From assembly GCF_029227855.1 (NCBI RefSeq), contig NZ_CP074356.1: a stretch of 64,000 bases of DNA; one strand, written 5' to 3'. The DNA is from Escherichia coli. GTDB lineage: Bacteria; Pseudomonadota; Gammaproteobacteria; Enterobacterales; Enterobacteriaceae. Both the position numbers and the translations under genes were made by a program. Positions 500-25,145 of the stretch are shown one piece after another. A model generated the notes under the pieces. It did not search any database and had not been told where the DNA came from. It was given only the letters and a program-made list of their open reading frames with translations. Every line of letters begins with the position of its first letter. Positions within the stretch are counted from its first letter, which is position 1.

Positions 500-775
500 A
501 TGTCGATGTACACAACCGCCCAGCTGCTGGCGGCAAATGAGCAGAAATTTAAGTTTGATCCGCTGTTTCTGCGTCTCTTTTTCCGTGAGAGCTATCCCTT
601 CACCACGGAGAAAGTCTATCTCTCACAAATTCCGGGGCTGGTAAACATGGCGCTGTACGTTTCGCCGATTGTTTCCGGTGAGGTTATCCGCTCCCGTGGC
701 GGCTCCACCTCTGAATTTACGCCGGGATATGTCAAGCCGAAGCACTTAGCATGGCTTTCTGAGGCTTTCGTGTAG
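500..775 (+). pseudogene. E: Major capsid protein gpE, 5' fragment (codons 1-82) running into island DNA
   Basis: MSMYTTAQLLAANEQKFKFDPLFL...SEFTPGYVKPKH matches lambda gpE residues 1-82. After base 745 the frame reads LAWLSEAFV and stops at 773-775. The rest of E resumes at 11872. Confidence 0.93.
735..744 (+). repeat. Left copy of the 10-bp direct repeat AGCCGAAGCA (attL core)
   Basis: Identical 10-mer at 11864-11873. Both copies lie on the E codons for K-P-K-H. Confidence 0.8.
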
Positions 776-872
776 CTGCTGGTTTTTACACTTAATCTTT
801 TGATAATAAAGAATAAGTTTATCTGGCGCTTTCACTGAATTTTCCTCGTTATCTGTGTGTTGCAATCATCTC

Positions 873-893
873 TGTATTGCAGCTTGTATTGCT
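873..893 (+). repeat. Tandem TGTATTGC motif (TGTATTGCAGCTTGTATTGCT), candidate arm-type Int binding site, left arm
   Basis: A near-identical 21-mer (TGTATTGCAGCATGTATTGCT) lies in the same orientation at 11768-11788. A degenerate third copy, TGTGTTGCAA, lies at 857-866. Confidence 0.5.
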
Positions 894-907
894 TTTTGGG
901 GCTAAAA

Positions 908-2143
908 ATGGCTGGCGAGAACAAACTGAGCGACAAAGCGCTTAAAGGATATCTGGGGAAACCCAGAGAAAAGCAGATCACCATTGCTGATGGAAAGGGG
1001 CTTTCTATTCGTGTGAGTACTAAAGGGGCTGTGAGCTTTGTTTTCTTCTACAGGTTAGCAGGTGGCCGGGCTGCTCCGGTCTGGCTAACGTTGGGTAAAT
1101 ATCCTGATATGTCACTCAAACAGGCAAGGGAAAAGCGCGACGAGTGCCGTGGTTGGTTGGCTGACAAACGTGATCCGCGTATCCAGATTAAGATTCAGGC
1201 TGAAGAACGCTTAAAGCCGGTCACAGTGGAGGATGCACTAAATTACTGGTATGAAAATTACTGTAAGGTGCGTCGTAAAACTCATGCTGTAACGCTTGGC
1301 AGATTTCGAAAGCATATCTTTCCCTATATCGGTCATTTGCCCGTAAATGACACTCACCTATATGAATAGCTGGACTGTTTTGACCGAATTAAACGTAATG
1401 CACCAGTTATGGCGGCGTATGTTTTTTCTGACACTAAATTAGCTCTTCGTTTTTGTCGGGTACGCCAGTACGCGACGTGTGATGCTTTAAAGGATTTGCG
1501 CATGAGTGATGTGGGGCAGATTGCAGGTAAGCGGGATCGGGTTCTGGATGAGGTCGAACTCGGCCAGCTCTGGAAGGCAATTTTTGTCGAGCCTGATTTA
1601 AAACTAATGTCTGAATACACGCGAAAAATGTTTGTGCTTTGTACAGTATTTGGATGTCGAATGAGTGAAGCCCGATTATCAGAATGGAGCGAATGGGATC
1701 TCGAAAGTTGGGTTTGGACTGTGCCAAAAGATCACTCAAAAACTGGTGTTGAAATCGTCAGACCAGTACCTGAAATTCTACGACAGTGGGTAACGGATGT
1801 TCACGAAGAGACAAAACATACTGGTTATGTGCTGGGAAGTCTGCGAATTAGAGAAAGCGTAAGCAAGATTGGGGGGAAAATCGGTAAACGTTTGGGCCAT
1901 GAAAAACAATGGTCACTACACGACCTTAGAAGAACGCTATCTACTCATCTAAGTGATCTCGGTGTTGAATTTTATGTAGTAGAACAACTGTTAGGCCATG
2001 CGCTACCTGGCGTGGCAGGTGTTTACAACCGGAGTAAGTTTATGGCTAAAAAACTGGATGCTCTGGAACTCTGGACTACATATCTCAATAGCATCGCAGC
2101 TGCTGATTCAAAAGTGACAATCCTCAAACAAAAGGCTGGTTAG
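908..2143 (+). pseudogene. int: P4-family tyrosine integrase interrupted by one in-frame amber codon
   Basis: ORFs 857-1369 and 1409-2143 are in the same frame, separated only by TAG at 1367-1369 (context LYE*LDCFDRI; TGG/Trp would fit). The C-terminal part has HDLRRT, LLGH and GVYNRS catalytic-type motifs. The ATG at 908 gives MAGENKLSDKALK. Confidence 0.85.
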
Positions 2144-2144
2144 C

Positions 2145-2375
2145 ATGAAAAAAATGGCAATTGTTGATAAAAAGGGTCTGGAGTACATTCCTAACATTGA
2201 CCGAATGATCCGTGAGAAAGAATGTCGGGAGCTAACTACTCTTGCGAACAGCACACGCTGGAAGCTGGAGAAGGAAGGAAAATTTCCTAAGCGGATCAAG
2301 ATTGGTTCCACTGCTGTTGCATATCGTCTTTCAGAAGTGCAGGCATGGATTCGAGGTGAGTGGGAAACAACTTAA
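2145..2375 (+). CDS. alpA: AlpA-family HTH regulator/excisionase-like protein
   Basis: 76 aa. IREKECRELTTLANSTRWKLEKEGKFPKRIKIGSTAVAYRLSEVQAWI fits the AlpA pattern (G-FP-P-K-G ... W-x-x-EV-x-W). The ATG lies 1 nt after the int stop. Confidence 0.8.
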   Translation: MKKMAIVDKKGLEYIPNIDRMIREKECRELTTLANSTRWKLEKEGKFPKRIKIGSTAVAYRLSEVQAWIRGEWETT

Positions 2376-2382
2376 CTATTAG

Positions 2383-3213
2383 GTGGGCATTGTGGCTATA
2401 TTTCATTATACAGATCTTTTTGGTTTGAAAGGTATATTAGACTCTAATTCTTTATGGGCTACAAACATATATTTCTTAAATGATAAAGAGGAGTCTAACC
2501 ATGGATGTGAATGCTTTCGAAATACAATTAAAATAGTTGATGACAATATCATTCCAAAAGATAAGAAAACTATTTTGCTCAAGTCTCTTGACATGTATGA
2601 GAAAGGGAGGTTACAAAAAGAAAAAGGGATTGATAAACATGTTTATAGCATCTCTTTTTGTAAGGAAAACGATAAGTTAAGTCAGTGGAGAGGTTACGGA
2701 AATAAACAGGGTGTTTGCATTGAGTTTGATGCGGATGAACTTGTGAGCTTTTCTCAAAATATTTATTTAAATTGTGTTGCACATGATGTTATATATTCAA
2801 ATAATAACGATATTACTAAGATGAGTAAGGAGTTGGGAGAGTTTTTTTCTTGTAATGGTATTAATATTAAAGAAATGAATGATCATTTTGTAACAATGGT
2901 CTCTACGTATCAATTTATATCTAAATACATCCCATTTTTTAAACATCCTAGTTTTATCGAAGAGAATGAATTTAGATTGGTATTTACTCCGTGGATGCAA
3001 ATGCCAGATGTGCACTTCAGAATAAATAATAATGGGATCATCCCTTATATCATCATTGATAATAAAGATAATAGAAAGTTACCAATTAAAAGCATTACAA
3101 TTGGCCCGACAAACGATTATGATTTCATTGAGGCTGGTATAAAAATGTTCTTGGATTCAAGAGGATTTAGTTCTGTGGAAATTAAATCCTCATCAATTCC
3201 ATTCAGGGGGTAA
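2383..3213 (+). CDS. DUF2971-like protein (AT-rich cargo)
   Basis: 276 aa with a GTG start. Motifs FHYTD...GIL, FLNDKEE, SISFC...DKLSQWRGYG..GVCIEF and KHPSFIEENEFR resemble the DUF2971 signature. The gene is markedly AT-rich compared with its neighbours. Confidence 0.6.
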   Translation: MGIVAIFHYTDLFGLKGILDSNSLWATNIYFLNDKEESNHGCECFRNTIKIVDDNIIPKDKKTILLKSLDMYEKGRLQKEKGIDKHVYSISFCKENDKLSQWRGYGNKQGVCIEFDADELVSFSQNIYLNCVAHDVIYSNNNDITKMSKELGEFFSCNGINIKEMNDHFVTMVSTYQFISKYIPFFKHPSFIEENEFRLVFTPWMQMPDVHFRINNNGIIPYIIIDNKDNRKLPIKSITIGPTNDYDFIEAGIKMFLDSRGFSSVEIKSSSIPFRG

Positions 3214-3258
3214 GGATTAACACTTTTAATCTATGATATTATAAAAATGGTGGATAAA

Positions 3259-3278
3259 GGCGACCAGAATTGGTCGCC
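3259..3278. terminator. Hairpin between the convergent cargo genes
   Basis: GGCGACCA (3259-3266) pairs with TGGTCGCC (3271-3278). Confidence 0.4.
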
Positions 3279-3344
3279 AATGTGAGTATATAGTTAGCCT
3301 TAATCAGAATACGAGGTTATCGCCTGATAGGCAATGTGAACAGT

Positions 3345-3701
3345 TCAATATTTAGGTGGTTCAACAAGAGCGTTTATCATTGCTCTCAAATTATCGCGAA
3401 CACTTATCCAAGTCTGTTCTGCTCGTTCTAACTCATCAGTGTACAACTTTAATGTTTTATCTATGCCATATGTGGCTATTAAATTTATAGCTTCTTGTAA
3501 TTTTTCAGGATTATTCCTTCTTGGGGGAGTGAATATACCACGGATTTTTCCGGTAATTAAAGCTTTACGGTGTCTACATAGAATACCTTTACTTCCTGCT
3601 GGACAATTACAAGTCATGATTAGCGAGCCAGAATCGTTTGATACAGTGACTATGTATACATCCAAACTACTGCTACTTGTTGCGAAGAATTCGTATTTCA
3701 T
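3345..3701 (-). CDS. Small SWIM-type zinc-finger protein
   Basis: 118 aa. CNCPAGSKGILCRHRKAL fits the CxC...CxH SWIM motif. Convergent with the DUF2971-like gene. Confidence 0.6.
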   Translation of the reverse strand: MKYEFFATSSSSLDVYIVTVSNDSGSLIMTCNCPAGSKGILCRHRKALITGKIRGIFTPPRRNNPEKLQEAINLIATYGIDKTLKLYTDELERAEQTWISVRDNLRAMINALVEPPKY

Positions 3702-3728
3702 GTGTTAGCTCCTTGACTTCAATTATTC

Positions 3729-3920
3729 TTATCCTTTTGGTTCAATACCGCGCCGTAGCAGCTCTTTGCGCCCTAATTCTTTAAGCCAGTTGGCTAGGCT
3801 TATGCCGTCGCTCTGCGCTTCTTTGTCGAATTGCTCTTTTAGCTCTGGAGAAATTCGCATTCTGAATTGTGGAGATTGCCCATCACCCTTAGGACTTTTA
3901 TCGCGTTTGATCGTTGACAA
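3729..3920 (-). CDS. Arc/Mnt-like ribbon-helix-helix repressor candidate
   Basis: SPQFRMRISPELKEQFDKEAQSDGISLANWLKE resembles the Arc N-terminus (PQFNLRWPREVLDLV...). I prefer the TTG start at 3920, which is preceded by AGGTGG. The ATG at 4043 in the ORF track would add a low-complexity extension that overlaps the divergent leader. Confidence 0.55.
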   Translation of the reverse strand: MSTIKRDKSPKGDGQSPQFRMRISPELKEQFDKEAQSDGISLANWLKELGRKELLRRGIEPKG

Positions 3921-3965
3921 GTGACCACCTATTGAATTAGCCTTTTCATTGTTAGGTGACCACCT
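3921..3965. promoter_or_regulatory. Two direct copies of GTGACCACCT, candidate operators in the divergent control region
   Basis: Exact 10-mers at 3921-3930 and 3956-3965. The second copy lies within the palindrome AGGTGACCACCT. The first abuts the repressor start. Confidence 0.4.
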
Positions 3966-3991
3966 TAACACGGGGGCACTTAAAAAAGCAA

Positions 3992-4022
3992 AGCCCGAAG
4001 GTGCTGGGAACACCAACGGGCT
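3992..4022 (+). ncRNA. Structured hairpin in the leader of the early operon (possible C4/CI-like immunity RNA element)
   Basis: AGCCCG-AA-GGTG-CTGGGAA-CACC-AA-CGGGCT forms a two-tier stem with a symmetric AA/AA internal loop. It lies about 40 nt upstream of an icd-like gene, the position of c4 in P1 immI. Confidence 0.3.
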
Positions 4023-4059
4023 TCTAACCACCAACGATAGCAACAGTATCGAGGTAGCT

Positions 4060-4263
4060 ATGAGAAATCATACCACACACCCGCAAGGGCGGGACCCGCA
4101 CAACCTGAATAAATACATCTGGCGTTTTATCGCCTTGAGTACGGCACAACCGCGCATGATTACCATCGAGGCCATCAGCGAACAGGAAGCCCGCCAGCAA
4201 TCCCCAACTGGCTGCGTGATGGTATTCGCCGCCCGTATTCGTCAGGAGGTGTGCCGTGCTTAA
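4060..4263 (+). CDS. Icd-like (cell division inhibitor-like) small protein
   Basis: 67 aa. KYIWRFIALSTAQPRMITIEAISEQEARQQSP...FAARIRQEV matches my memory of Icd-like proteins from P4-type satellites. GAGGT lies 5 nt upstream of the ATG at 4060. Confidence 0.55.
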   Translation: MRNHTTHPQGRDPHNLNKYIWRFIALSTAQPRMITIEAISEQEARQQSPTGCVMVFAARIRQEVCRA

Positions 4264-4441
4264 AACCTTCCGTGTATTTGCCCGAGCTGTTAACCCACTG
4301 GGCCACACAATTGGTATCACTCAGAACGTGAAGGCTGTTAATGTTCAGACGGCTATTGCTGCGGTGAGAAGCGAATCATCAGAATATGGCTTATCACAAG
4401 TCATTATTTCAGCAGTGTATGAATTAAAAGAGGTGCATTAA
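4256..4441 (+). CDS. Hypothetical protein
   Basis: 61 aa with a GTG start overlapping the upstream stop. Part of a tightly packed same-strand operon. Confidence 0.45.
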   Translation: MLKTFRVFARAVNPLGHTIGITQNVKAVNVQTAIAAVRSESSEYGLSQVIISAVYELKEVH

Positions 4442-4632
4442 TGCAGGAAATCACATTACACGAAGCCGCTGAACGTGCGCACCAGACAGAAATTATTTGC
4501 CGCCTTCTTGAGGTATACCCGAACAAAATTACAGATGCTGATATATCCGCGCTGGCGAGCCTACTGGCGCGCCTTTCGGGAAGTGTCGCTAGTTTCCTGA
4601 TTGAGGAAGAAAGTAAGCTGGTGGGGGATTAA
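4441..4632 (+). CDS. Hypothetical protein
   Basis: 63 aa. TAATG overlap with the upstream gene suggests translational coupling. Confidence 0.5.
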   Translation: MQEITLHEAAERAHQTEIICRLLEVYPNKITDADISALASLLARLSGSVASFLIEEESKLVGD

Positions 4633-4854
4633 ATGAATACAGAACGGGAAGTCTTTTTTAAATTGTTAGCATGTGCAGAAAGTTCATTAACTTTAAATAA
4701 TTCAGCAAAAGCAATATTAAATATGTGGCTTGATTGCATAAATGACAATGAAGATGCAAATATTGCTTATGGCCTGTTGTCACTTATTGATGAATCAGCA
4801 GAAAAACTCAATGACGCAATAAATAGTGCCCTGCTATCAAATAAGTCGAGTTAA
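4633..4854 (+). CDS. Hypothetical protein (AT-rich)
   Basis: 73 aa. The ATG directly follows the upstream TAA. Confidence 0.5.
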   Translation: MNTEREVFFKLLACAESSLTLNNSAKAILNMWLDCINDNEDANIAYGLLSLIDESAEKLNDAINSALLSNKSS

Positions 4855-4871
4855 GTCGAGGAATAAATAAT

Positions 4872-5171
4872 ATGGAAATGAAAAATTCTGGCTTTATTGC
4901 CAGCGGCCCCGCTCGGCCTGAATTTATGAACGGCGATATTTACCGCGATAAATACGGCGGCACGGTAACGATTAAAGGCGTGGCAGAACGGCGCATCACT
5001 TACCGCCGTGAGGGGTATAGCTATGACTGCGTGATGCCTGTTTATCAGTTCCGGCGTGATTTTTCCCTGGTATATGCCGCACCCCGCAGTAAGCCCATCA
5101 GCAGGGAAAAAGCGCGGGGAAACATCCAGAAAATGAAAAGCATGATTAACGCATTCAGGGGCAAAAAATGA
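4872..5171 (+). CDS. Hypothetical protein
   Basis: 99 aa. ATGA overlap with the primase-helicase gene. Confidence 0.55.
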   Translation: MEMKNSGFIASGPARPEFMNGDIYRDKYGGTVTIKGVAERRITYRREGYSYDCVMPVYQFRRDFSLVYAAPRSKPISREKARGNIQKMKSMINAFRGKK

Positions 5172-6919
5172 AACTGGCACCGAACTTAAAAAAACAGCCA
5201 CGCGACAGACTGACAGAGGTAATCATCTTTGCAGGTAGTGATGCGTGGAGCCATGCGAAAGAGTGGCGGGAATGGGCGGGTAAACATATTGCCGCCGACG
5301 ATGTGCCGCCTGTCGTGCTGGCTGATGAGCAACTGAAAAATATCACCGATTACCGGATCATTGATGAAGATCGTCAGTGTGTGCGTGTTTACCGCGCAGG
5401 ACATATCACAGAGCACAGCATGACGCAGATTGTTACGTTACTGGCTGTGGCTGGAGTGAAGACCGTACACGAATACGCGGGGATTACTGACACCAGCCCA
5501 GTGGATTTATCCGAGCAGTTGCCGCGACTCAAAGAGGAATGCGAGCGTGGGGAAAGTCTGGTGCTTAATCTTCCGACGAAGCAAAAGGCGCAACTTTCAC
5601 AGATGGCAGACAGTGAACGTGCACAACTACTTGCCGATCGCTTTGATGGTGTGTGTGTTCATGCAGAAAGTGAAATCGTCCACGTATGGCGCGGCGGGGT
5701 ATGGTGTCCGGTCAGCACAATGGAGCTGAGCCGCGAAATGGTGGCGATCTATTCAGAGCACAGGGCCACGTTCAGCAAACGTGTAATCAATAACGCCGTG
5801 GAAGCGTTAAAAGTTATTGCCGACCCCATGGGGGAGCCGTCCGGTGATTTGCTACCGTTCACTAATGGTGTGCTTAACCTGAAAACGGGGGAATTTTCTC
5901 CGCACTCGCCGGAGCACTGGAGCACCACGCACAATGGCATTGAGTACACGCCACCAGTAGCAGGGGAAAACATCCGCGATAATGCGCCAAATTTCCATAA
6001 ATGGCTTGAACATGCTGCAAGAAAAGACCCGCGCAAGATGATGCGTATATGTGCCGCGTTATACATGATTATGGCGAACCGCTACGACTGGCAGATGTTC
6101 ATTGAGGCCACCGGAGACGGGGGAAGCGGTAAGAGTACATTTACCCATATTGCCACCCTGCTTGCTGGCAAACAGAACACCGTAAGCGCGGAGATGACAT
6201 CACTCGATGATGCAGGAGGGCGCGCGCAGGTTGTCGGGAGTCGTCTTATCGTCCTTGCCGATCAGCCGAAATATACGGGGGAAGGCACGGGCATCAAGAA
6301 AATCACGGGAGGCGATCCCGTTGAAATTAACCCGAAATATGAGAAGCGATTCACGACGATAATAAGGGCGGTGGTACTGGCAACCAATAACGACCCGATG
6401 ATCTTTACCGAACGGGCCGGAGGTGTGTCACGCCGTCGGGTGATTTTCCGGTTCGACAACATTGTAAGGGAGGACGAAAAAGACAAGGAATTACCGGAAA
6501 AGATAGCGGCAGAAATCCCCGTAATTATCCGCCGCTTGCTGGCTAATTTTGCTGACCCTGAAAAGGCACGGGCTTTATTACTGGAACAGCGTGACGGTGA
6601 TGAAGCTCTGGCAATAAAGCAGCAAACGGATCCGGTTGTTGAGCTTTGCGCGGCGCTGGAGTTTCTGGAGGAAGCTCGTGGGCTAATGATGGGCGGTGGT
6701 GGTGACACCGTGAAGTACACGACCAGAAACAGCCTTTACCGTGTCTATATGGCCTTCATGGCATACACAGGAAAGGGGAAATGTTTGAGCGTGAATGAGT
6801 TCGGAAAGGCTATGAGGTCAGCGGCGAAAGTTTACGGATATGAATATATTACGCGAAAAGTTAAGGGAGTCACGCAGACCAACGCAACGACTACTGATGA
6901 TTGCGATGCGTTTTTATAA
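5168..6919 (+). CDS. P4/D5-family primase-helicase (replication initiator, pri-rep type)
   Basis: 583 aa. FHKWLEHAARKD...YDWQMFIEATGDGGSGKSTF fits the phage/plasmid primase P4-family C-terminal NTPase with a Walker A motif. An iteron field lies immediately downstream. Confidence 0.8.
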   Translation: MKLAPNLKKQPRDRLTEVIIFAGSDAWSHAKEWREWAGKHIAADDVPPVVLADEQLKNITDYRIIDEDRQCVRVYRAGHITEHSMTQIVTLLAVAGVKTVHEYAGITDTSPVDLSEQLPRLKEECERGESLVLNLPTKQKAQLSQMADSERAQLLADRFDGVCVHAESEIVHVWRGGVWCPVSTMELSREMVAIYSEHRATFSKRVINNAVEALKVIADPMGEPSGDLLPFTNGVLNLKTGEFSPHSPEHWSTTHNGIEYTPPVAGENIRDNAPNFHKWLEHAARKDPRKMMRICAALYMIMANRYDWQMFIEATGDGGSGKSTFTHIATLLAGKQNTVSAEMTSLDDAGGRAQVVGSRLIVLADQPKYTGEGTGIKKITGGDPVEINPKYEKRFTTIIRAVVLATNNDPMIFTERAGGVSRRRVIFRFDNIVREDEKDKELPEKIAAEIPVIIRRLLANFADPEKARALLLEQRDGDEALAIKQQTDPVVELCAALEFLEEARGLMMGGGGDTVKYTTRNSLYRVYMAFMAYTGKGKCLSVNEFGKAMRSAAKVYGYEYITRKVKGVTQTNATTTDDCDAFL

Positions 6920-6932
6920 AAAATGGCAATGG

Positions 6933-7161
6933 TTATCTACCTTGTCTACCTGACTGAAAGAAAATACTTTTATTTCAATGTATTAATGCAGGTAGATAAC
7001 TATTTTTCACTGTCTACCTGTTATCTACCTTATCTACCCATTTTTGTAGACAGGTAAGGAGACGGGTAGAGATGAGGTAGACAGCTATTTGGGGCTGTCT
7101 ACCTCCCTGAAACCCGCGCCATTACTGGCCTGATAACTAATCAGGTAGACAAGGTAGACAA
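6933..7161. repeat. Iteron field, candidate satellite origin of replication
   Basis: At least 10 copies of GGTAGA(C/T)A or its complement, in both orientations: 6933-6941, 6942-6950, 6991-6999, 7011-7018, 7021-7029, 7030-7038, 7077-7085, 7095-7103, 7144-7152, 7153-7161. AT-rich spacers lie around 6955-6990. Confidence 0.75.
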
Positions 7162-7208
7162 GGTGGTGGTGCACAAAAAACTTTTTAAACGAGGGGGTAA
7201 AAATAAAA

Positions 7209-7466
7209 ATGCACACTTCAGGAAAACTGAACAAACATATAAAGCCACATTACCGCGCCCTTGATATGGCTGAACACTGGCTAAGGGTGGCGATTAAGGC
7301 AATAGACCGCAACGCCGGGGAAGGATACGCGAAAGCACATCCCGAACTGATAAGCGCATTCATGACAACGGCGGCTGCAAACTTTGCCACGCTGACCGAA
7401 CGGGAGATTGCTGAAGCGGAGGAAGTGACAACAATCAATATTAAGTCCGGAGAGCAGGCAGCATGA
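7209..7466 (+). CDS. Hypothetical protein
   Basis: 85 aa. ATGA overlap with the SSB gene. Confidence 0.5.
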   Translation: MHTSGKLNKHIKPHYRALDMAEHWLRVAIKAIDRNAGEGYAKAHPELISAFMTTAAANFATLTEREIAEAEEVTTINIKSGEQAA

Positions 7467-7912
7467 CGGCGCAAATATCAGTTTACGGGCGGTTGGTGGA
7501 CGACCCGCAGACAAAACAGACCAGCAAGGGCACCCCCATGACGCTGGCGCGTATGGCGGTATCACTGCCCTGCAGTCAGTCGGATGACGGTCTGGCGACG
7601 TTGTGGTTATCTGTCCTGGCGTTTGGCAGACAAGCCGACGCGCTGGCAAAGCATCACAAAGGCGAACTCCTGAGCGTGGCGGGTAACATGCAGATGAGCC
7701 AGTGGACTGGACAGAACGGCGAAACGCGGCAGGGCTGGCAGGTTATCGCAGACAGCGTAATCAGTGCGCGATCGGTGCGACCGGGCGGCAAAAAAGGCCA
7801 ACAGGGGCAGGCTACTGACGCACTGAACAGAGCAAAACAACAGGCAGATCAGCAAGGAAGCCAGCCACCAGAGGGAGATAATGAGCAATGGGGAGATGAT
7901 ATCCCGTTTTAA
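7463..7912 (+). CDS. ssb: Single-stranded DNA-binding protein (SSB family)
   Basis: 149 aa. OB-fold-type N-terminus (VYGRLVDDPQTKQT...WLSVLAFGRQAD...KGELLSVAGNMQMSQW), a Gln/Gly-rich linker, and the canonical acidic tip DDIPF. Confidence 0.8.
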   Translation: MTAQISVYGRLVDDPQTKQTSKGTPMTLARMAVSLPCSQSDDGLATLWLSVLAFGRQADALAKHHKGELLSVAGNMQMSQWTGQNGETRQGWQVIADSVISARSVRPGGKKGQQGQATDALNRAKQQADQQGSQPPEGDNEQWGDDIPF

Positions 7913-7923
7913 ATATTGCCAAT

Positions 7924-7954
7924 AAAAAAAGCCGGAAAAAATAAATTTTCCGGC
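7924..7954 (-). terminator. Hairpin with its T-run only on the minus strand, between the replication and capsid modules
   Basis: GCCGGAAAA (7931-7939) pairs with TTTTCCGGC (7946-7954). A7 at 7924-7930 gives a U-tract only for leftward transcription. Confidence 0.4.
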
Positions 7955-8128
7955 ATGCTACATAAATCCCGACCAAAGGGAGTGAAGATATTAACACTAA
8001 TTGTCCGCACTGAAGTTGTCACACCAAAACTTTATACAACATTGCACTCGGTTGCATGTGTTCGCATGACAAATATCGGTGATAGCATATATCCACAATT
8101 ATTTTTAATGAATGCAAAGAGGATGCGT

Positions 8129-9169
8129 ATGGTTGATTTATATTCGCCTACTCAGCTTGTACAGGTAGTTAATGCTGTAGATGTACAAAAACAACTAAAT
8201 GCGTTGTTTACCAGTTTGTTTTTTACTCGCTCGGTAATGTTTGAATCGCGCGATATTATTCTTGATACAATCGACGATCCAAATATCCCAATTGCAGCGT
8301 TTTGTTCTCCTATGGTGGGTAGTAAAGTTTCACGTGACGAAGGGTACGAATCAAAAACAATTCGTCCAGGCTATATGAAGCCGAAAAGCAGCATTGATCC
8401 AAATAAGTTAGCTGTGCGCCCTGCTGGTGTGTCACCTGAGCAATACAATGCTTTTGGGGCGCGTAATATTAAAGTTAAACAGGCGATTGTAAATCAGGCT
8501 AAAGCTATTCGTGCACGTATTGAATGGCTTGCTGTTCAGGCAATCACAACGGGGAAAAATATCATTGAGGGCGATGGTATTGAACGTTATGAGCTGGACT
8601 GGAATATAAAACCACAAAATATCATCACTCAGTCTGGCGGTACTGAGTGGTCAGGTAAGGATAAAGAAACTTTTGATCCAAATGATGATATTGAGAGCTA
8701 CGCAGAATTTAGTGAGGGCGTCACTAATATCATCATTATGGGTGGTAATGTATGGAAGAAATACCGTTCATTCAGAGCGATAAAAGAGGCTTTGGATACC
8801 CGTCGTGGTTCTAATTCCGAACTGGAAACGGCCCTTAAAGACCTTGGTGATTCGGTGAGTTTTAAAGGGTATATGGGCGATGTTGCGATTGTTGTTTACA
8901 GCGGGCGTTATACCGACGAGGACGGAACAGAAAAACATTTCCTTGATCCTGATTTGATGGTGCTTGGCAATACGGCTCTTCAGGGGATTGTCGCCTATGG
9001 CGGTATTCAGGATCCGGAGCTAATCCGAATGGGGCTGACTAAAGCCGAACTTGCACCGAAAAACTATATTGTGCCTGGTGATCCGGCTATTGAATATGTG
9101 CAGACACATTCAGCACCACAGCCAATACCGGCCCGCATCAATCGTTTTGTTACCGTTCGCATTGGCTAA
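8129..9169 (+). CDS. Satellite-encoded major capsid protein, gpE (lambda E) family
   Basis: 346 aa. The C-terminal half aligns by eye with lambda gpE: ITQSGGTEWSGKDKETFDPNDDIESYA, LDTRRGSNSELETALKDLG, YMGDVAIVVYSGRY, MVLGNTA, PGDPA. The N-terminal half is much more diverged. The ATG at 8129 has AAGAGGA 6 nt upstream. The longer ORF from 7916 has no homology support. Confidence 0.88.
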   Translation: MVDLYSPTQLVQVVNAVDVQKQLNALFTSLFFTRSVMFESRDIILDTIDDPNIPIAAFCSPMVGSKVSRDEGYESKTIRPGYMKPKSSIDPNKLAVRPAGVSPEQYNAFGARNIKVKQAIVNQAKAIRARIEWLAVQAITTGKNIIEGDGIERYELDWNIKPQNIITQSGGTEWSGKDKETFDPNDDIESYAEFSEGVTNIIIMGGNVWKKYRSFRAIKEALDTRRGSNSELETALKDLGDSVSFKGYMGDVAIVVYSGRYTDEDGTEKHFLDPDLMVLGNTALQGIVAYGGIQDPELIRMGLTKAELAPKNYIVPGDPAIEYVQTHSAPQPIPARINRFVTVRIG

Positions 9170-9178
9170 GGGGGAGCA

Positions 9179-9520
9179 ATGGCTACTCATTACACTGAAC
9201 TCATGGCTGGCACTGAAGCACTGGTGACTACGCTGGGGATATTTTCAGCTAATAAAGGGGTAATTCCTGCATTTACGCCACTGATGCAGGAAGATGCAAC
9301 AGGTGCACTGGTGGTATGGGATGGTTCGAGCGTAGGTAAAGCGGTTTATGTTTCCGCTGTACAAATCGACACCGCGAAAAAAACACAGGCTCAGGTCTAT
9401 AAGACAGGTGTCTTAAATGTTGATGCTCTGAACTGGCCTGAGTCTGTTAAAGAACTGTCAGTAAAGGTTGCAGCGTTTGTTGGCTCAGGTATTTCTGTTC
9501 AGCCGCTGGCTCGTGTGTAA
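9179..9520 (+). CDS. Satellite-encoded head decoration protein, gpD family
   Basis: 113 aa. Shares TPLM, LVxWDG, YKxG, LxWPE and AFxGxGIS with lambda gpD in the same order. Confidence 0.75.
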   Translation: MATHYTELMAGTEALVTTLGIFSANKGVIPAFTPLMQEDATGALVVWDGSSVGKAVYVSAVQIDTAKKTQAQVYKTGVLNVDALNWPESVKELSVKVAAFVGSGISVQPLARV

Positions 9521-9531
9521 AGGGGGATACA

Positions 9532-9915
9532 ATGCAGAATGATTACAATGACCTTAAGCCAATTGCCGAAATGATGTACCCGAATCAAGCTGTAGAGGAA
9601 TTAAAAGCTATCGCTGACAAAATGTGTTTAAGCGAGCGCCTTGTTGATATGAATCAGGTGATGGAAATTACAACCCTGAGTCGTCGTACACTGCTAAACC
9701 TTGAGGCTAGTGGAGAGTTCCCGGAGCGTGTGCAGGTTACGGAAGGGCGTAAGGCCTGGTATTTAAGTGAAGTGATCGACTGGATAAATAATATTCCTCG
9801 CGCTTCTGAATATTGCCGCGTACCTGTCCCAAAAAAGCCAGATGCGGCGCTATGCCTCAAGATTGAGCGTGTACGCCGCAATGCACGGGATGGTCGCTAT
9901 AAGCTGATTGGTTGA
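9532..9915 (+). CDS. AlpA/MerR-like winged-HTH protein immediately upstream of cos
   Basis: 127 aa. MNQVMEITTLSRRTLLNLEASGEFPERVQVTEGRKAWYLSEVIDWI fits the AlpA pattern. It is the last gene before the cos site. Confidence 0.65.
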   Translation: MQNDYNDLKPIAEMMYPNQAVEELKAIADKMCLSERLVDMNQVMEITTLSRRTLLNLEASGEFPERVQVTEGRKAWYLSEVIDWINNIPRASEYCRVPVPKKPDAALCLKIERVRRNARDGRYKLIG

Positions 9916-9922
9916 TGAAATT

Positions 9923-9948
9923 AGGACCCGCTCTGGCTGGCGGGTCCT
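9923..9948 (+). terminator. Hairpin after the capsid module
   Basis: AGGACCCGC (9923-9931) pairs with GCGGGTCCT (9940-9948), followed by TTCC (a weak T-run). Confidence 0.45.
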
Positions 9949-9954
9949 TTCCGG

Positions 9955-10140
9955 CGATCCAGAACGTTACGGGGCGTCAGGCGCGCAGTTTTTCGCTATT
10001 TGTGAAAATTTTCCTGTTTAAGGCGTTTCCGTTCTTCTTCGCCGTAACTTAATGTTTTTATTAAAAACACCCCCTAAAAAGAAAGGAAACGACAGGTGCT
10101 AAAAACAGGCTTTTTGGCCTCTGTCGTTTCCTTTCTCTGG
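9955..10140 (+). other. cos: Lambda-type cos site (cosN plus cosB R3-I1-R2-R1) with no adjacent terminase genes
   Basis: CGTTACG|GGGCGTCAGGCG|CGCAGTTTTTCGCTATTTGTGAAAATTTTCCTGTTTAAGGCGTTTCCGTTCTTCTTCG...GAAAGGAAACGACAGGTGCT...GGCTTTTTGGCCTCTGTCGTTTCCTTTCTCTG is collinear with my memory of the first ~180 bp of lambda. The R-site repeats CGTTTCC lie at about 10023-10034, 10081-10095 (inverted) and 10121-10135. The predicted 12-nt end at 9972-9983 matches lambda GGGCGGCGACCT at 7 of 12 positions. Confidence 0.85.
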
Positions 10141-10479
10141 TTTTGTTGCCATCCGTCGCGGTCTATCACCAGAAAAAATCTTATCCCTGAGTTGAATCAG
10201 GCCCTATTCAGAAGCGGCCAATAACGCGCCGCTAGCTTCACTTCATAGTTATGGCCTACTTCTGCGCCATTGCAATTGCTTTATGCGCCTTGATGGTGGA
10301 ATATAGAGCAAGCAGTTTGCGAATAACAAAGTTTCATATGTTTTTTGCTGTGTGGCTAGACAACTTTACAGCAGAGTTTTGTGTCAGTTCTTTATGTGTG
10401 CAAGCAAGCTTGAGGGGGAATTACTTCTGGCTGTATCTTTGCTTAAGAACAGCAATAATTTAATCATAAGGAAATGTAT

Positions 10480-10506
10480 ATAAGCCTGATTAAATTTCAG
10501 GCTTAT
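10480..10506 (-). terminator. Hairpin just downstream of the TIR gene
   Basis: ATAAGCCTGA (10480-10489) pairs with TCAGGCTTAT (10497-10506), 8 nt past the stop of the minus-strand gene. Confidence 0.5.
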
Positions 10507-10513
10507 TGAAATG

Positions 10514-11656
10514 TTAACTCCTTATTAGAGAGTAAATTCCATCCTCTTTAAGGAAGTCTATTACTTCAAAGAATGAGATAAAGAATTCCCAAGAACCAAA
10601 AGCATATGCATGAATTTCGTAAGGTGCAAAATGGAATCTAAATCCATCACTATTTATTGTGAACGAGTCTAAGTTACTATCCATGATACCCGTTGCAAAC
10701 GTACTAATGTCGTCCTCACTTGGTTTTTCACCAGTTTTCTCCCAAAATTCACGAGCTGATTCAGAGATTATTTTTTGTTTTATCTTATTAATCGCTTCTT
10801 GCTCTTTCCCTTCGGTAAATACATCCCATAAACTAAATTTGTATGCGTAGTCATCCTTGGTTATTACGAAATTACTAGTTTCAAAATGACTGTTAGGGTG
10901 TGCTGCTCCCGCACCATACCAATGTACGGAATGAAGGATGCTCATGACATTTTCGTTACAGTATGAGATGTTATAACTTTCATTATAGGAACTAGTGTAA
11001 GTGTGTTTATATTCTTCATCCCAATATGGTGTTCCTGGCCATAGTGATGTGCGTTCAGAAAAAATATGTAAAGCCGCTTTTCCTGAAAAGTAATCACTAA
11101 TGAGTTTTGCTGATTTCGGTAATGTATGGCTTTCAATTCTTGGATATGCTATTTCAATTTCATGCCCTGGGATCTTGTTATATTCTTCCTTGAAAACCTC
11201 GCTGCTAAAGTTAAATGGCCCATAAGTGATACCTTGAGATATTTCAAGTTTTTGTTGCGATGCTGCTAATCTTAAAGATCTAGATAAAATGTCCCAACCA
11301 TCATTTCTCTTAAAATCAATGAATTGGAGCTTGCTTGATATGTAGGCGGGTACTTCGCAATCATCAATAAGTAATGGTATCACGAACACATCATCTGGTT
11401 TGTAATACTTTAGTTTATCAATGGCGTCATTTATTTCGCGGCGAATATAACCATTTTTCTGAGTGCTCACTTTGCTAAGGATAAGGATTATCAAGTTTGA
11501 ATTAGCGAAGTTTTTTTGGATTTCATAATCCCAGTTTACGCCAGCGGGTATATCTTTTACATCCATCCAAGGGGAATATCCTCCACTTTTTAGCCTTTCA
11601 TAGATTTCTTCAGTTATCGTTTCATCTTCTTTTGCATGAGCAAGAAAAATTTTCAT
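10514..11656 (-). CDS. TIR-domain protein fused to a DUF4163/DUF3298 (RsiV-like) C-terminal domain
   Basis: 380 aa with no signal peptide or TM segment visible. The N-terminus (MKIFLAHAKEDE...GYSPWMDVKDIPAGVNWDYEI...SNLIILILSKVSTQKNGYIRREINDAI) fits the TIR_2 pattern, including the conserved Glu position. The C-terminus has IEIAYPRI... and HWYGAGAAHPNSHFETSNF...FSLWDVF, resembling the DUF4163 and DUF3298 motifs. AT-rich. Confidence 0.7.
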   Translation of the reverse strand: MKIFLAHAKEDETITEEIYERLKSGGYSPWMDVKDIPAGVNWDYEIQKNFANSNLIILILSKVSTQKNGYIRREINDAIDKLKYYKPDDVFVIPLLIDDCEVPAYISSKLQFIDFKRNDGWDILSRSLRLAASQQKLEISQGITYGPFNFSSEVFKEEYNKIPGHEIEIAYPRIESHTLPKSAKLISDYFSGKAALHIFSERTSLWPGTPYWDEEYKHTYTSSYNESYNISYCNENVMSILHSVHWYGAGAAHPNSHFETSNFVITKDDYAYKFSLWDVFTEGKEQEAINKIKQKIISESAREFWEKTGEKPSEDDISTFATGIMDSNLDSFTINSDGFRFHFAPYEIHAYAFGSWEFFISFFEVIDFLKEDGIYSLIRS

Positions 11657-11767
11657 TGAATATTCCTTTATAATTTAACTAATTAAGTGAAGGAGGCTTT
11701 ACTTGGCTGTGTTAGAAAAAATTCGGTTTGTTTTTTGTACGATGCCAAGAAGGCTTTTCCCTAACCA

Positions 11768-11788
11768 TGTATTGCAGCATGTATTGCT
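11768..11788 (+). repeat. Tandem TGTATTGC motif (TGTATTGCAGCATGTATTGCT), candidate arm-type Int site, right arm
   Basis: Matches 873-893 at 20 of 21 positions, in the same orientation. Confidence 0.5.
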
Positions 11789-11863
11789 ACGTAATTCTGC
11801 ACCCTCTCATTTATAAAATAAATCTCTGTTAAATCAAGTATCTTTTTTCTATTTGACTCATGT

Positions 11864-11873
11864 AGCCGAAGCA
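11864..11873 (+). repeat. Right copy of the 10-bp direct repeat AGCCGAAGCA (attR core)
   Basis: Identical to 735-744. Followed by TGAGGTGAATCCGCAG, the continuation of lambda E (H-E-V-N-P-Q). Confidence 0.8.
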
Positions 11874-12699
11874 TGAGGTGAATCCGCAGATGACCCTGCG
11901 TCGCCTGCCGGATGAAGATCCGCAGAATCTGGCGGACCCGGCTTACCGCCGCCGTCGCATCATTATGCAGAACATGCGTGACGAAGAGCTGGCCATTGCC
12001 CAGGTCGAAGAGATGCAGGCAGTTTCTGCCGTGCTTAAGGGCAAATACACCATGACCGGTGAAGCCTTCGATCCGGTTGAGGTGGATATGGGCCGCAGTG
12101 AGGCGAATAACATCACGCAGTCCGGCGGCACGGAGTGGAGCAAGCGTGACAAGTCCACGTATGACCCGACCGACGATATCGAAGCCTACGCGCTGAACGC
12201 CAGCGGAGTGGTGAATATCATCGTGTTTGATCCGAAAGGCTGGGCGCTGTTCCGTTCCTTCAAAGCCGTCAAGGAGAAGCTGGATACTCGTCGCGGCTCT
12301 CATTCCGAGCTGGAGACAGCGGTGAAAGACCTGGGCAAAGCGGTGTCCTACAAGGGGATGTATGGCGATGTGGCCATCGTCGTGTATTCCGGACAGTACG
12401 TGGAAAACGGCGTCAAAAAGAACTTCCTGCCGGACAACACGATGGTGCTGGGGAACACTCAGGCACGCGGTCTGCGCACCTATGGCTGCATTCAGGATGC
12501 GGACGCACAGCGCGAAGGCATTAACTCCTCTGCCCGTTACCCGAAAAACTGGGTGACCACCGGCGATCCGGCGCGTGAGTTCACCATGATTCAGTCAGCA
12601 CCGCTGATGCTGCTGGCTGACCCTGATGAGTTCGTGTCCGTACAACTGGCGCAATCGTGGCCCTTCGGGGCCATTTTCTCTCTGTGGAGGAGTCCATGA
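11872..12699 (+). pseudogene. E: Major capsid protein gpE, 3' fragment (codons 82-341), with loss of the normal stop
   Basis: HEVNPQMTLRRLPDEDPQNLADPAYRRRR...DPDEFVSVQLA matches lambda gpE 82-341. The expected TAA is CAA (12652-12654), so the frame runs 15 more codons (QSWPFGAIFSLWRSP) to TGA at 12697-12699. Confidence 0.93.
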
Positions 12700-20972: not shown

Positions 20973-23900
20973 ATGGGCAAAGGAAGCAGTAAGGGGCATA
21001 CCCCGCGCGAAGCGAAGGACAACCTGAAGTCCACGCAACTGCTGAGTGTGATTGATGCCATCAGCGAAGGGCCGATTGAAGGTCCGGTGGATGGATTAAA
21101 AAGCGTGCTGCTGAACAGTACGCCAGTGCTGGACACTGAGGGGAATACCAACATCTCCGGCGTCACGGTGGTGTTCCGGGCCGGTGAGCAGGAGCAGACA
21201 CCGCCGGAGGGATTTGAATCCTCCGGCTCCGAGACGGTGCTGGGTACGGAAGTGAAATACGACACGCCGATCACCCGGACCATCACGTCGGCAAACATTG
21301 ACCGACTGCGTTTTACCTTCGGCGTGCAGGCACTGGTGGAAACCACCTCAAAGGGGGACAGGAATCCGTCGGAAGTCCGCCTGCTGGTTCAGATACAACG
21401 TAACGGTGGCTGGGTGACGGAAAAAGACATCACCATTAAAGGCAAAACCACCTCACAGTATCTGGCCTCGGTGGTGGTGGGTAACCTGCCGCCGCGCCCG
21501 TTCAATATCCGGATGCGCAGGATGACGCCGGACAGCACCACAGACCAACTGCAGAACAAAACGCTCTGGTCGTCATACACCGAAATCATCGATGTGAAAC
21601 AGTGCTACCCGAACACGGCACTGGTTGGCGTGCAGGTGGACTCGGAGCAGTTCGGCAGCCAGCAGGTGAGCCGTAATTATCATCTTCGCGGGCGCATTCT
21701 GCAGGTGCCGTCGAACTATAACCCGCAGACGCGGCAATACAGCGGTATCTGGGACGGAACGTTAAAACCGGCATACAGCAACAACATGGCCTGGTGTCTG
21801 TGGGATATGCTGACCCATCCGCGCTACGGCATGGGGAAACGTCTTGGTGCGGCGGATGTGGATAAATGGGCGCTGTATGTCATCGGCCAGAATTGCGACC
21901 AGTCAGTGCCGGACGGCTTTGGCGGCACGGAGCCACGCATCACCTGTAATGCATACCTGGCCACACAGCGCAAGGCGTGGGATGTGCTCAGTGATTTCTG
22001 CTCGGCGATGCGCTGTATGCCGGTATGGAACGGGCAGACGCTGACGTTCGTGCAGGACCGACCGTCCGATAAGGTGTGGACCTATAACCGCAGTAATGTG
22101 GTGATGCCGGATGATGGCGCGCCGTTCCGCTACAGCTTCAGCGCCCTGAAGGACCGCCATAATGCCGTTGAGGTGAACTGGATTGACCCGGATAACGGCT
22201 GGGAGACGGCGACAGAGCTTGTGGAGGACACGCAGGCCATTGCCCGTTACGGTCGTAACGTCACGAAAATGGATGCTTTTGGCTGTACCAGCCGGGGGCA
22301 GGCACACCGCGCCGGGCTGTGGCTGATTAAAACGGAGCTGCTGGAAACGCAGACCGTGGACTTCAGCGTGGGCGCAGAAGGGCTGCGCCATGTACCGGGT
22401 GATGTTATTGAAATCTGCGATGATGACTATGCGGGGATCAGCATTGGCGGGCGCGTGCTGGCGGTGAACAGCCAGACCCGGACGCTGACGCTCGACCGTG
22501 AAATCACGCTGCCATCCTCCGGTACCACGCTGATAAGCCTGGTTGACGGAAGTGGCAATCCGGTCAGCGTGGAGGTTCAGTCCGTCACCGACGGCGTGAA
22601 GGTAAAAGTGAGCCGTGTTCCTGACGGCGTTGCCGGATACAGCGTATGGGGGCTGAAGCTGCCGACGCTGCGCCAGCGCCTGTTCCGCTGCGTGAGTATC
22701 CGTGAGAACGACGACGGCACGTATGCCATCACCGCCGTGCAGCATGTGCCGGAAAAAGAGGCCATCGTGGATAACGGGGCGCACTTTGACGGCGAACAGA
22801 GTGGCACGGTGAATGGTGTCACGCCGCCAGCGGTGCAGCACCTGACCGCAGAAGTCACTGCAGACAGCGGGGAATATCAGGTGCTGGCGCGATGGGACAC
22901 ACCGAAGGTGGTGAAGGGCGTGAGCTTCCTGCTCCGTCTGACCGTAACAGCGGACGACGGCAGTGAGCGGCTGGTCAGCACGGCCCGGACGACGGAAACA
23001 ACATACCGCTTCAGGCAGCTGGCGCTGGGGAACTACAGGCTGACAGTCCGGGCAGTAAATGCCTGGGGGCAGCAGGGAGACCCGGCGTCGGTATCGTTCC
23101 GGATTGCCGCACCGGCAGCGCCGTCACAGATTGAGCTGACTCCGGGCTATTTTCAGATAACCGCCACGCCGCATCTTGCGGTTTATGATCCGACGGTACA
23201 GTTTGAGTTCTGGTTCTCGGAAAAGCGGATTGCGGATATCAGGCAGGTTGAAACCACAGCACGCTATCTTGGCACGGCGCTGTACTGGATAGCCGCCAGT
23301 ATCAATATCAAACCGGGCCATGATTATTATTTTTACATCCGCAGTGTGAACACCGTTGGCAAATCGGCATTTGTGGAGGCTGTTGGCCAGCCGAGTGATG
23401 ATGCATCCGGCTATCTGAATTTTTTCAAAGGAGAGATAGGGAAAACCCATCTGGCTCAGGAGCTGTGGACGCAGATTGATAACGGTCAGCTTGCGCCTGA
23501 CCTGGCGGAAATCAGAACGTCCATCACGGATGTCAGTAATGAAATCACGCAGACCGTCAATAAGAAACTGGAAGACCAGAGTGCGGCAATCCAGCAGATA
23601 CAGAAGGTTCAGGTTGATACAAATAATAACCTGAACAGCATGTGGGCTGTGAAGCTGCAGCAGATGCAGGACGGACGCCTTTATATCGCGGGTATTGGTG
23701 CCGGTATTGAGAATACCCCTGACGGTATGCAGAGTCAGGTGCTGCTGGCGGCGGACAGGATTGCGATGATTAATCCTGCGAATGGCAACACAAAACCGAT
23801 GTTTGTTGGTCAGGGCGATCAGATATTCATGAACGAAGTGTTCCTGAAATATCTGACGGCTCCCACCATTACCAGCGGCGGTAATCCTCCGGCATTTTCC

Positions 23901-24452
23901 CTGACACCGGACGGGCGGCTGACGGCGAAAAATGCCGATATTAGCGGTAACGTGAATGCGAACTCCGGGACGCTCAACAACGTCACGATTAACGAGAACT
24001 GCCGGGTTCTGGGAAAACTGTCCGCGAACCAGATTGAAGGCGATCTCGTTAAAACAGTGGGCAAAGCTTTCCCCCGGGACTCCCGTGCACCGGAACGGTG
24101 GCCATCAGGGACCATTACCGTCAGGGTTTATGACGATCAGCCGTTTGACCGGCAGATTGTTATTCCGGCGGTGGCATTCAGCGGCGCTAAACATGAGAGA
24201 GAGCATACTGATATTTACTCCTCATGCCGTCTGATAGTGCGGAAAAACGGTGCTGAAATTTATAACCGTACCGCGCTGGATAATACGCTGATTTACAGTG
24301 GCGTTATTGATATGCCTGCCGGTCACGGTCACATGACGCTGGAGTTTTCGGTGTCAGCATGGCTGGTAAATGACTGGTATCCCACAGCAAGTATCAGCGA
24401 TCTGCTGGTTGTGGTGATGAAGAAAGCCACCGCAGGCATCAGTATCAGCTGA
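20973..24452 (+). CDS. J: Central tail fibre / host specificity protein J
   Basis: 1159 aa. [37 protein letters not shown]... The lambda-like C-terminus reads ...[38 protein letters not shown]. Confidence 0.93.
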
Positions 24453-24470
24453 ATTTTATAACCCATATAC

Positions 24471-24495
24471 GGGCGCCAGAAATGGCGCCTTTTTT
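24471..24495 (+). terminator. Rho-independent terminator after J
   Basis: GGGCGCC ... GGCGCC followed by T6 (24490-24495). Confidence 0.6.
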
Positions 24496-24519
24496 ATTGC
24501 AGAAAAGCGAGAGGTAATT

Positions 24520-25119: not shown

Positions 25120-25145
25120 TTAGCCAGATAACACAGTGTTATGAC

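Follow-up and report, generated by a model that had tools for sequence, protein, structure and literature searches.

A Satellite-Encoded Capsid and Decoration Protein Pair in a Helper-Embedded Phage-Inducible Chromosomal Island of Escherichia coli and Its Possible Role in Helper-Sized Heads

1. Introduction

Among the late genes of Gram-negative phage-inducible chromosomal islands (PICIs), one for a capsid protein is met most often, in 21 of the 29 reference elements (PMC10111431), and the five core components in SatelliteFinder's PICI model include the capsid (capsid-E) gene, which is commoner in Proteobacteria (PMC10085698). The present work concerns one such capsid open reading frame (ORF), here called E′ (8129–9169), and the decoration ORF next to it, D′ (9179–9520), in an 11,129 bp satellite that lies inside gene E, which encodes the major capsid protein, in a lambda-like prophage of Escherichia coli (assembly GCF_029227855.1, contig NZ_CP074356.1). 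The whole stretch of DNA analysed, 64,000 nucleotides long, is referred to as the window; coordinates are those of the window unless another locus is named, the surrounding prophage is called the helper, and L-numbers denote the relative loci that were examined. Both genes turn out to be intact and strongly selected members of a lineage that is, in the contexts examined, confined to satellites, and they may give the satellite its own supply of shell proteins.

It has been reported that the closest studied relative, EcCICFT073 (the Gram-negative model PICI from E. coli CFT073; Fillol-Salom et al. 2018, 2019), carries the capsid gene c1499 and the head-decoration gene c1500, that all of its packaged DNA is phage-sized and is packaged as multimers, that deletion of c1499 or c1500 neither restores lambda plaques nor changes transfer (Table 1 of that paper), and that among its late genes expressed singly only c1503 (RppA) blocks lambda (Fillol-Salom et al. 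2018; PMC6092414). E′ is 55% identical to c1499 and D′ 54% identical to c1500, which is closer than any phage protein. The two elements share the pair and its order 3′ of the primase and origin, a capsid clade apart from phage E, lambdoid helpers and cos-type packaging. However, EcCICFT073 has a chromosomal site, two cos sites, a non-lambda cosB and RppA, which redirects the small terminase subunit (TerS) of the helper, whereas the window element has a lambda-like cosB, neither Rpp nor TerS, and an unrelated gene after D′.

The second close system is Eco567.11capE, the founding helper-embedded PICI (HE-PICI), which prophage 50icd of E. coli NRG857c carries within its capsid gene E, with a 10-bp identity block in this lambda-E-like prophage gene as the attachment (att) site; 491 further HE-PICIs were mapped, and E is their most frequent site (Tommasini, Mageeney, Williams 2023; PMC10111431). 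By its published description, Eco567.11capE resembles the window element in its size of about 11 kb, its position inside and co-oriented with helper E, the 10-bp block, its own E-family capsid gene, and its int, alpA and primase genes, while the window copy differs from that description in its TIR cargo, a nonsense codon in int and the loss of the stop codon in the helper E remnant.

The window element is a classical enterobacterial PICI of this helper-embedded “11capE” type, with a late module consisting of E′, D′, an AlpA-like gene and cos. The sequence features by which PICIs are recognised in Fillol-Salom 2018 and SatelliteFinder were all found: int stands at one end of the element, co-oriented and followed by alpA; a primase is accompanied by a predicted origin; a Phage_cap_E late gene is present; the packaging determinant is the cos at 9940–10145, without TerS or Rpp; and the size of 11,129 bp falls in the range of about 10–20 kb, with no tail, lysis, portal or large-terminase gene found. 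Of those of the HE-PICI E:Phage_cap_E group, the site inside E, the co-orientation and a 10-bp core near codon 80 were found.

Other satellites handle the shell in different ways. Capsid-forming PICIs (cf-PICIs), such as EcCIEDL933, likewise encode their own HK97-fold capsid protein, and published capsid trees separate PICI from cf-PICI (PMC10085698). However, they also encode the portal, the protease/scaffold, head–tail adaptors, TerS and the large terminase subunit (TerL), and make their own small capsids; this set (portal, large terminase, adaptor/connector, protease/scaffold) was not found in 735–11873 by Pfam, PHROG or tblastn. SaPIbov5 Ccm is, like E′, a satellite homologue of the helper major capsid protein carried with no other head gene, but it changes capsid geometry and has no decoration partner, whereas the E. 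coli PICI relative packaged phage-sized DNA only. In P4, too, satellite proteins act on the shell and one of them is a decoration/stabilising protein; however, Sid is an external scaffold, Psu decorates shells made of helper gpN, both are unrelated to capsid proteins and to gpD, and P4 encodes no shell subunit. Pfam and PHROG scans assigned no ORF of the window element to Sid, Psu, Delta or the P4 alpha-type primase–helicase, and, set against the P4 gene set, the element has an Icd-like gene and a D5-type primase.

An earlier note on this DNA, made from the letters alone, had set the element apart from cf-PICIs and P4, and these searches agree with it. The novelty that the note implied does not stand, since c1499/c1500 (PMC6092414), the SatelliteFinder core gene (PMC10085698) and 11capE (PMC10111431) all precede it. 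That is to say, the gene pair and the element type were already published (2018, 2023), and what is added here is the satellite-only clade, the near-invariant gene order and the graded relatives with protease and TerS genes, which together lead to a sharper hypothesis of working shell subunits.

2. Capsid Protein E′ and Decoration Protein D′

First of all, E′ (346 aa) can be aligned over its full length with the gpE reconstructed for the helper, at 42% identity (E value 6e-86), and matches Pfam Phage_cap_E at 1e-41. The identity is unevenly spread, being 31% over residues 1–160 and 54% over residues 161–346. A sequence search of the PDB gave 3BQW (2.7e-121) and lambda gpE (7VI9, 4.7e-77), and the AlphaFold2 model (predicted local distance difference test, pLDDT, 82) superposes on 3BQW with a template modelling (TM) score of 0.93 and on lambda gpE 7SJ5 with a TM score of 0.88. 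The title of entry 3BQW reads “putative capsid protein of prophage (E. coli CFT073)” and its chain of 351 residues has the length of c1499, so that, from the agreement of title and length, it is apparently c1499 itself. E′ is an intact, full-length capsid protein of the gpE family with the HK97 fold.

D′ (113 aa) is 38% identical to helper gpD (106–444; E value 1e-17), matches Pfam HDPD at 4.5e-15, and in the sequence search matches both SHP of phage 21 (1TD0) and gpD. Its AlphaFold2 model (pLDDT 81) gives TM scores of 0.82/0.91 to SHP 1TD0, and gpD 1C5E was also matched. By sequence and fold, D′ is a decoration protein of the gpD/SHP family, while its trimerisation and its binding to the E′ lattice are predicted properties. 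The earlier note had called the first ORF gpE-like with a more diverged N-terminal half and the second gpD-like, and had proposed a comparison of structures; both descriptions hold, and in the comparison the models matched the HK97 fold (E′) and the gpD/SHP fold (D′).

The ratio of nonsynonymous to synonymous substitution rates (dN/dS) was taken from the pair window versus L017, which is unsaturated (dS about 0.17–0.29). E′ gives 0.045 and D′ 0.076, both at a dS of about 0.17–0.21, alpA2, the AlpA-like gene downstream, gives 0.07, and more distant pairs lie between 0.02 and 0.16. E′ and D′ are under strong purifying selection, and their function is retained.

3. Distribution of the Pair and Its Gene Order

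The phage comparison set comprised 50,697 records, in which the best identity was 42.3% to E′ and 40% to D′. In a collection of 5.8 billion proteins, identity to E′ grades from 99% down to about 50% and then drops to at most 43%. In average-linkage clustering, one group took in 45 full-length sequences, c1499 among them, with an internal identity of at least 46%, and the other group took in all three helper E proteins. Every E′–D′ context that was read is a PICI, whereas the control, drawn from the 42% group, shows the usual head operon of a phage, Nu1-A-W-B-C-D-E-FI. By these comparisons, E′–D′ is a lineage found only in satellites.

The contexts themselves are varied. E-embedded satellites with the pair occur in Cedecea and Kosakonia, and PICIs outside E in Kluyvera and Superficieibacter; an Edwardsiella satellite interrupts the portal gene, next to helper D and E, which are intact; PICIs of Lelliottia, Serratia and a metagenome adjoin fis; and a Salmonella satellite lies in the tail region of a myovirus prophage. 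Chromosomal PICIs of E. coli carry E′–D′ with other integrases and a RepA helicase, and the chromosomal sites are fis, cspD-clpS and abgR-smrA. Among complete E. coli genomes, 394 of 5,426 contain the pair. At least 80% of the element is present in 25 complete E. coli genomes, and in both of those inspected it lies inside a split major capsid gene; no complete E. coli genome in the collection searched matched the whole element, the best coverage being 86%. The pair is thus common (about 7% of complete E. coli genomes; PICIs across Enterobacterales) and strongly selected, yet the only published knock-outs are without phenotype. A literature search with the RefSeq protein accessions gave no match.

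For the gene order, an alignment-based scan of viral contigs gave 80 IMG/VR loci (a single-protein scan of genome contigs gave four). D′ directly follows E′ in 78 of the 80, the exceptions being one truncated contig and one recombinant, so the E-like then D-like order to which the earlier note had drawn attention is real and recurrent, and it is reversed relative to phages across genera. The genes downstream in the 80 loci include AlpA-like genes (53 loci), TerS-like genes (39) and RppA (9), and alpA2 travels with E′–D′ as a three-gene module.

In two PICIs at the fis site, L010 (11409–12752) and L015 (11418–12659), a gene for an S49 protease stands directly after D′, and one of the two also has a Nu1-like TerS (coordinates listed for L015: 13530–14078). 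Their E′–D′–C′ order is the exact reverse of the phage C–D–E order, on the same strand. In lambda, the scaffold Nu3 is nested in gene C, the counterpart of the S49 protease gene. L010 and L015 look like intermediates between classical and capsid-forming PICIs.

P0043 and L071 were considered as exceptions to the satellite-only clade and rejected, both being E/E′ recombinants and not phages that use E′. In L071 (10001–11035; IMG/VR), E′ supplies the N-terminal part and helper E the C-terminus of a fusion that runs straight into FI, the host being a prophage remnant full of insertion sequence (IS) elements. The reciprocal kind of fusion is seen in L018 (2801–3829; metagenome scaffold), where about codons 1–222 of helper E lead into the C-terminal third of E′, with the junction in some 13 nt of microhomology, and D′ and alpA2 come next; as this is a single short contig, an assembly artefact is possible. 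The two chimeras show recombination between satellite and helper capsid genes.

Since such recombinants exist and PICI late zones do take up helper late genes (PMC10111431), the pair might be regarded as a recently captured or decaying prophage D/E without a function of its own. This explanation is very improbable: neither gene has a close copy in the phage records, the highest identities being those given above, the reversed gene order holds across genera, dN/dS is 0.05–0.1, and the ORFs are intact in hundreds of genomes. The recombined prophage copy that the earlier note had allowed for is therefore set aside.

4. Missing Head Genes, cos and Packaging

Inside 735–11873, a tblastn panel (Nu1, A, W, B, C, FI, U and V of the helper, RppA, a PICI protease and a PICI TerS) found no match, and Pfam and PHROG scans of the remaining element ORFs found no portal, protease/scaffold, terminase or connector gene, as the earlier note had maintained. 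Likewise, tblastn with RppA (c1503), c1501, c1504 and helper Nu1 gave nothing in the window. The alpA2 ORF was tried as a candidate Rpp and dropped, as it has no sequence match to Rpp structures and matches only the AlpA entry 8C3T.

The canonical lambda cosN GGGCGGCGACCT is missing from the window even with mismatches allowed, and a BLAST query with the cos region of the helper located the satellite cos. Over 206 nt, cosQ and cosB included, the latter shares 89% identity with the L001 helper's cos region, which lies upstream of Nu1. The position of the 12-nt overhang, 9972–9983, reads GGGCGTCAGGCG, a variant of GGGCGGCGACCT that differs from the helper's overhang at 5 of 12 positions. Because the cosB is of lambda type and neither Rpp nor TerS is present, the helper terminase could recognise the satellite cos directly. 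Across the satellite cos sites compared (window, L004–L007 and L019–L098), the overhang is GGGCGTCAGGCG in 31 loci and the canonical GGGCGGCGACCT in 33, besides six rarer variants, and cosQ and the left nick-site flank are conserved where the overhang varies.

Lambda packages DNA of about 75–105% of 48.5 kb. Three units of 11,129 bp amount to 33.4 kb, four to 44,516 bp and five to 55.6 kb, and only four fall within this range. A normal lambda head filled with four tandem units (44.5 kb) is a better reading than small heads. The small-head alternative holds that E′, with D′, replaces or co-assembles with gpE so as to form T=3 or T=4 heads, which take one or two units and exclude the helper genome. 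It has precedents, since satellite capsid homologues can redirect capsid size or shape, as does SaPIbov5 Ccm (cited in PMC6092414), and PmCI172, which has a capsid homologue, makes small heads (PMC6092414); moreover, the strongly diverged N-terminal half of E′, judged from other HK97-type capsids, probably holds the N-arm and the E-loop. However, the closest studied relative packaged phage-sized DNA, deletion of c1499/c1500 left interference and transfer as before, exactly four units fit a normal lambda head, and no scaffold or size-determination gene was found in the element by Pfam, PHROG or tblastn, so that redirection of head size is quite unlikely. The smaller heads once suggested for this pair are contradicted for EcCICFT073 by its phage-sized DNA and null deletions, with the limit that its protein is only 55% identical to E′, while the EcCICFT073 data agree with the fallback then offered, a normal lambda head that takes four units (44,516 bp).

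5. State of This Copy

The satellite is inserted in helper E, between D and FI and on the same strand as E. The two att cores are 11,129 bp apart, which makes the insert 735–11873, within about codons 79–82 of E; L001 and L002 have the same split-E arrangement, annotated there as partial major capsid protein. About the leftmost 26 kb of the window belongs to the head and tail module of the lambda-like prophage, in which helper D (106–444) is uninterrupted and the long ORFs of the tail region appear so.

At 1367–1369 the integrase is interrupted by a nonsense codon (TGG to TAG), which is not in the near-identical L001 and L002; the integrase of L001, 411 aa long and intact, is 99% identical to it. 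This satellite probably cannot excise by itself, and with such a codon helper E would stay split. In the helper E remnant, the stop codon TAA has become CAA at 12652–12654, which adds 15 residues up to a TGA at 12697–12699, while L001 and L002 keep the TAA. The nonsense codon and the stop loss together suggest that helper E is decaying while E′ stays intact. Because E is split, the integrase carries a nonsense codon and the stop of the E remnant is lost, E′ is the only intact major capsid gene here, beside an otherwise intact-looking head and tail module, and the window therefore offers a natural test case. In L001 (E. coli strain 10; 21412–26889), frameshifts affect the helper genes FII, Z, G, T and H, and the satellite genes are annotated intact; the L001 helper is decaying.

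Following a suggestion of Tommasini et al., the pair could be seen as a backup copy, which replaces the helper capsid gene that the satellite has interrupted. The state of this copy agrees with it, with E′ as the only intact major capsid gene, the nonsense codon in int and the lost stop of the E remnant, and so do the 37 of the 80 related IMG/VR loci that are flanked by helper-E fragments. However, the module is also found in portal-interrupting PICIs with helper E and D intact (L008, L043), in a PICI of the tail region (L014) and at chromosomal sites without an adjacent helper (L010, L011, L015, L016, L017 and CFT073); helper D is uninterrupted here, yet D′ is always carried; and the contexts argue against a gain of E′–D′ only in the subclade of E-site integrases. 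As the primary role, backup is therefore rather unlikely, and in view of these varied contexts it could bring the E-site subgroup no more than a secondary benefit.

6. Proposed Role of E′ and D′

As a whole, the observations are best explained if E′–D′ is a helper-independent supply of shell proteins entering normal lambda-sized heads, to which we give somewhat better than an even chance. The pair would be expressed late, from its own promoter-like region and/or by read-through of helper late transcription. E′, either by itself or in mixture with helper gpE, would then assemble as a subunit of the shell on the helper portal and protease/scaffold, and the product would be heads of normal lambda size, stabilised by D′ as the cognate cement of E′. 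The helper terminase would recognise the lambda-like satellite cos and fill the head with about four tandem units (44.5 kb). With intact helper E and D the pair would be dispensable, and it would become important once helper E/D is impaired, as at this locus.

Several observations argue for this supply of shell proteins. The relatives L010 and L015 add a cognate protease gene, which would otherwise be hard to explain if E′ did not really assemble. A shell and cement role is hinted at by the cognate D′ that travels with E′ and by the position of the diverged part of E′, its N-terminal 160 residues, which may cover the gpD-binding elements. As for full-size heads, EcCICFT073 packaged phage-sized DNA, only four units fit, and cos keeps the helper-type cosQ and cosB.

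With regard to expression, E′ is placed in the path of helper late transcription, and the block 8029–8090 upstream of it contains TTTATACA, the repeats ATTGCAC-n4-TTGCAT-n3-TTCGCA and then TGATAGCAT, which is extended -10-like. The blocks within 8029–8090 are kept in eight satellites from six genera, with varying flanks and with the TTGCA-like repeats spaced 10 nt. The region may be an activator-dependent or extended -10 promoter of the E′–D′–alpA2 unit.

Some points weigh against this role. A scan for the sigma-70 consensus upstream of E′ did not call a promoter. The authors of the EcCICFT073 study found no phenotype for c1499 (PMC6092414), and the null c1499/c1500 deletions mean that the pair may act in another way than by incorporation into heads. 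EcCICFT073 is itself an imperfect guide, its capsid protein being only 55% identical and its packaging proceeding via Rpp and a non-lambda cosB, both lacking here. In addition, the fit of E′ with the helper portal, Nu3 scaffold and C protease is a prediction, and so, in view of the mismatched cosN overhang, is efficient cutting by the helper terminase.

A bolder version would make the element a “half capsid-forming” satellite, with its own shell and cement on the portal, scaffold/protease and terminase of the helper, which obtains heads even without a usable helper E, whether that gene is split by the satellite, mutated or targeted by host defence. The relatives with protease/scaffold and TerS genes would then mark a graded path from classical PICIs to cf-PICIs, and the published null phenotypes would be explained by the helpers tested having intact E and D, as the deletion tests of EcCICFT073 did use such helpers. 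We give this version a low probability. If it is true that E′–D′ build the heads of such helper–satellite composites, classical PICIs would supply structural parts and not only steal them, and the line to cf-PICIs would be blurred.

The null phenotypes may also be read differently: E′–D′ could poison or titrate helper head assembly, or serve as a decoy for host defences that sense capsids. PICIs typically carry interference genes in the late zone, and purifying selection together with a null transfer phenotype would fit a role against particular phages or defences. On the other hand, only c1503 (RppA) blocked lambda, deletion of c1499/c1500 did not relieve interference, and a poison has no obvious need of a co-evolving decoration partner or a cognate protease/scaffold. 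There is little probability in this explanation, and the supply of shell proteins for normal heads remains the preferred one.

7. Layout of the Satellite and Other Features

The features of the locus are collected in Table 1. Besides these, the insert holds, on the plus strand unless marked, ORFs for a DUF2971 protein, a SWIM protein (minus strand), an Icd-like gene, several small ORFs, a DUF4222 protein and an 85-aa ORF.

Table 1. Coordinates of the satellite, its attachment cores and the two parts of helper E.
Feature	Coordinates	Strand	Remarks
Helper E, 5′ part (about codons 1–82)	500..744	+	gpE match up to ...PGYVKPKH, then divergence
attL core AGCCGAAGCA	735..744	+	Identical 10-bp block at both junctions
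Tyrosine integrase	908..2143	+	Pfam Arm-DNA-bind_3, SAM-like, Phage_integrase
AlpA regulator/excisionase	2145..2375	+	Pfam Phage_AlpA 3e-15
Primase/replicase (D5_N, DUF5906)	5168..6919	+	Pfam
Single-strand DNA-binding protein	7463..7912	+	Pfam SSB 2e-15
E′, major capsid protein of the satellite (gpE family of lambda, HK97 fold)	8129..9169	+	
D′, satellite head-decoration protein (gpD/SHP family)	9179..9520	+	
Second AlpA-like helix-turn-helix protein (alpA2)	9532..9915	+	Pfam Phage_AlpA 7.5e-9; PHROG 2790 3e-49; PDB 8C3T 2e-9
Satellite cos (cosQ, cosN, lambda-like cosB)	9940..10145	+	206-nt match to helper cos region
TIR-domain cargo gene	10514..11656	-	PADLOC TIR models 1.6e-17; variable slot between cos and attR
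attR core AGCCGAAGCA	11864..11873	+	Second copy of 10-bp block
Helper E, 3′ part	11874..12699	+	Reading resumes with EVNPQMTLRRLP

Directly 3′ of the primase, at 6932–7104, there are iteron-like repeats, GTTATCTACCTTRTCTACC twice and AGGTAGAYARCTATTT...CTGTCTACCT twice (families D1 and D6), which form the probable, predicted replication origin of the satellite.

Just inside both ends of the element, at 873–893 and 11768–11788, stands a doubled motif, TGTATTGCAGCtTGTATTGCT, also written TGTATTGCAGC(T/A)TGTATTGCT. It probably corresponds to the “doubled DNA motif” of arm type, described by Tommasini et al. as unique to HE-PICIs. A common operator for this motif and the TTGCA repeats upstream of E′ was considered and rejected, the spacing being 12 nt in the one and 10 nt in the other and the counts of the pattern in the window being no higher than chance. 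By pairwise identity, the integrases of two other E-embedded satellites are 83–88% identical to that of the window.

As for the cargo, genes for the DUF2971 protein and the SWIM zinc-finger protein lie between alpA and the replication genes (2383–3213; 3345–3701). Together with the TIR gene they are probably anti-phage cargo; the best PADLOC matches of the TIR protein are TIR modules of Argonaute-associated and Thoeris-like systems. The slot between cos and attR is occupied by an unrelated gene in L001 and by the same TIR gene in L002 and L006.

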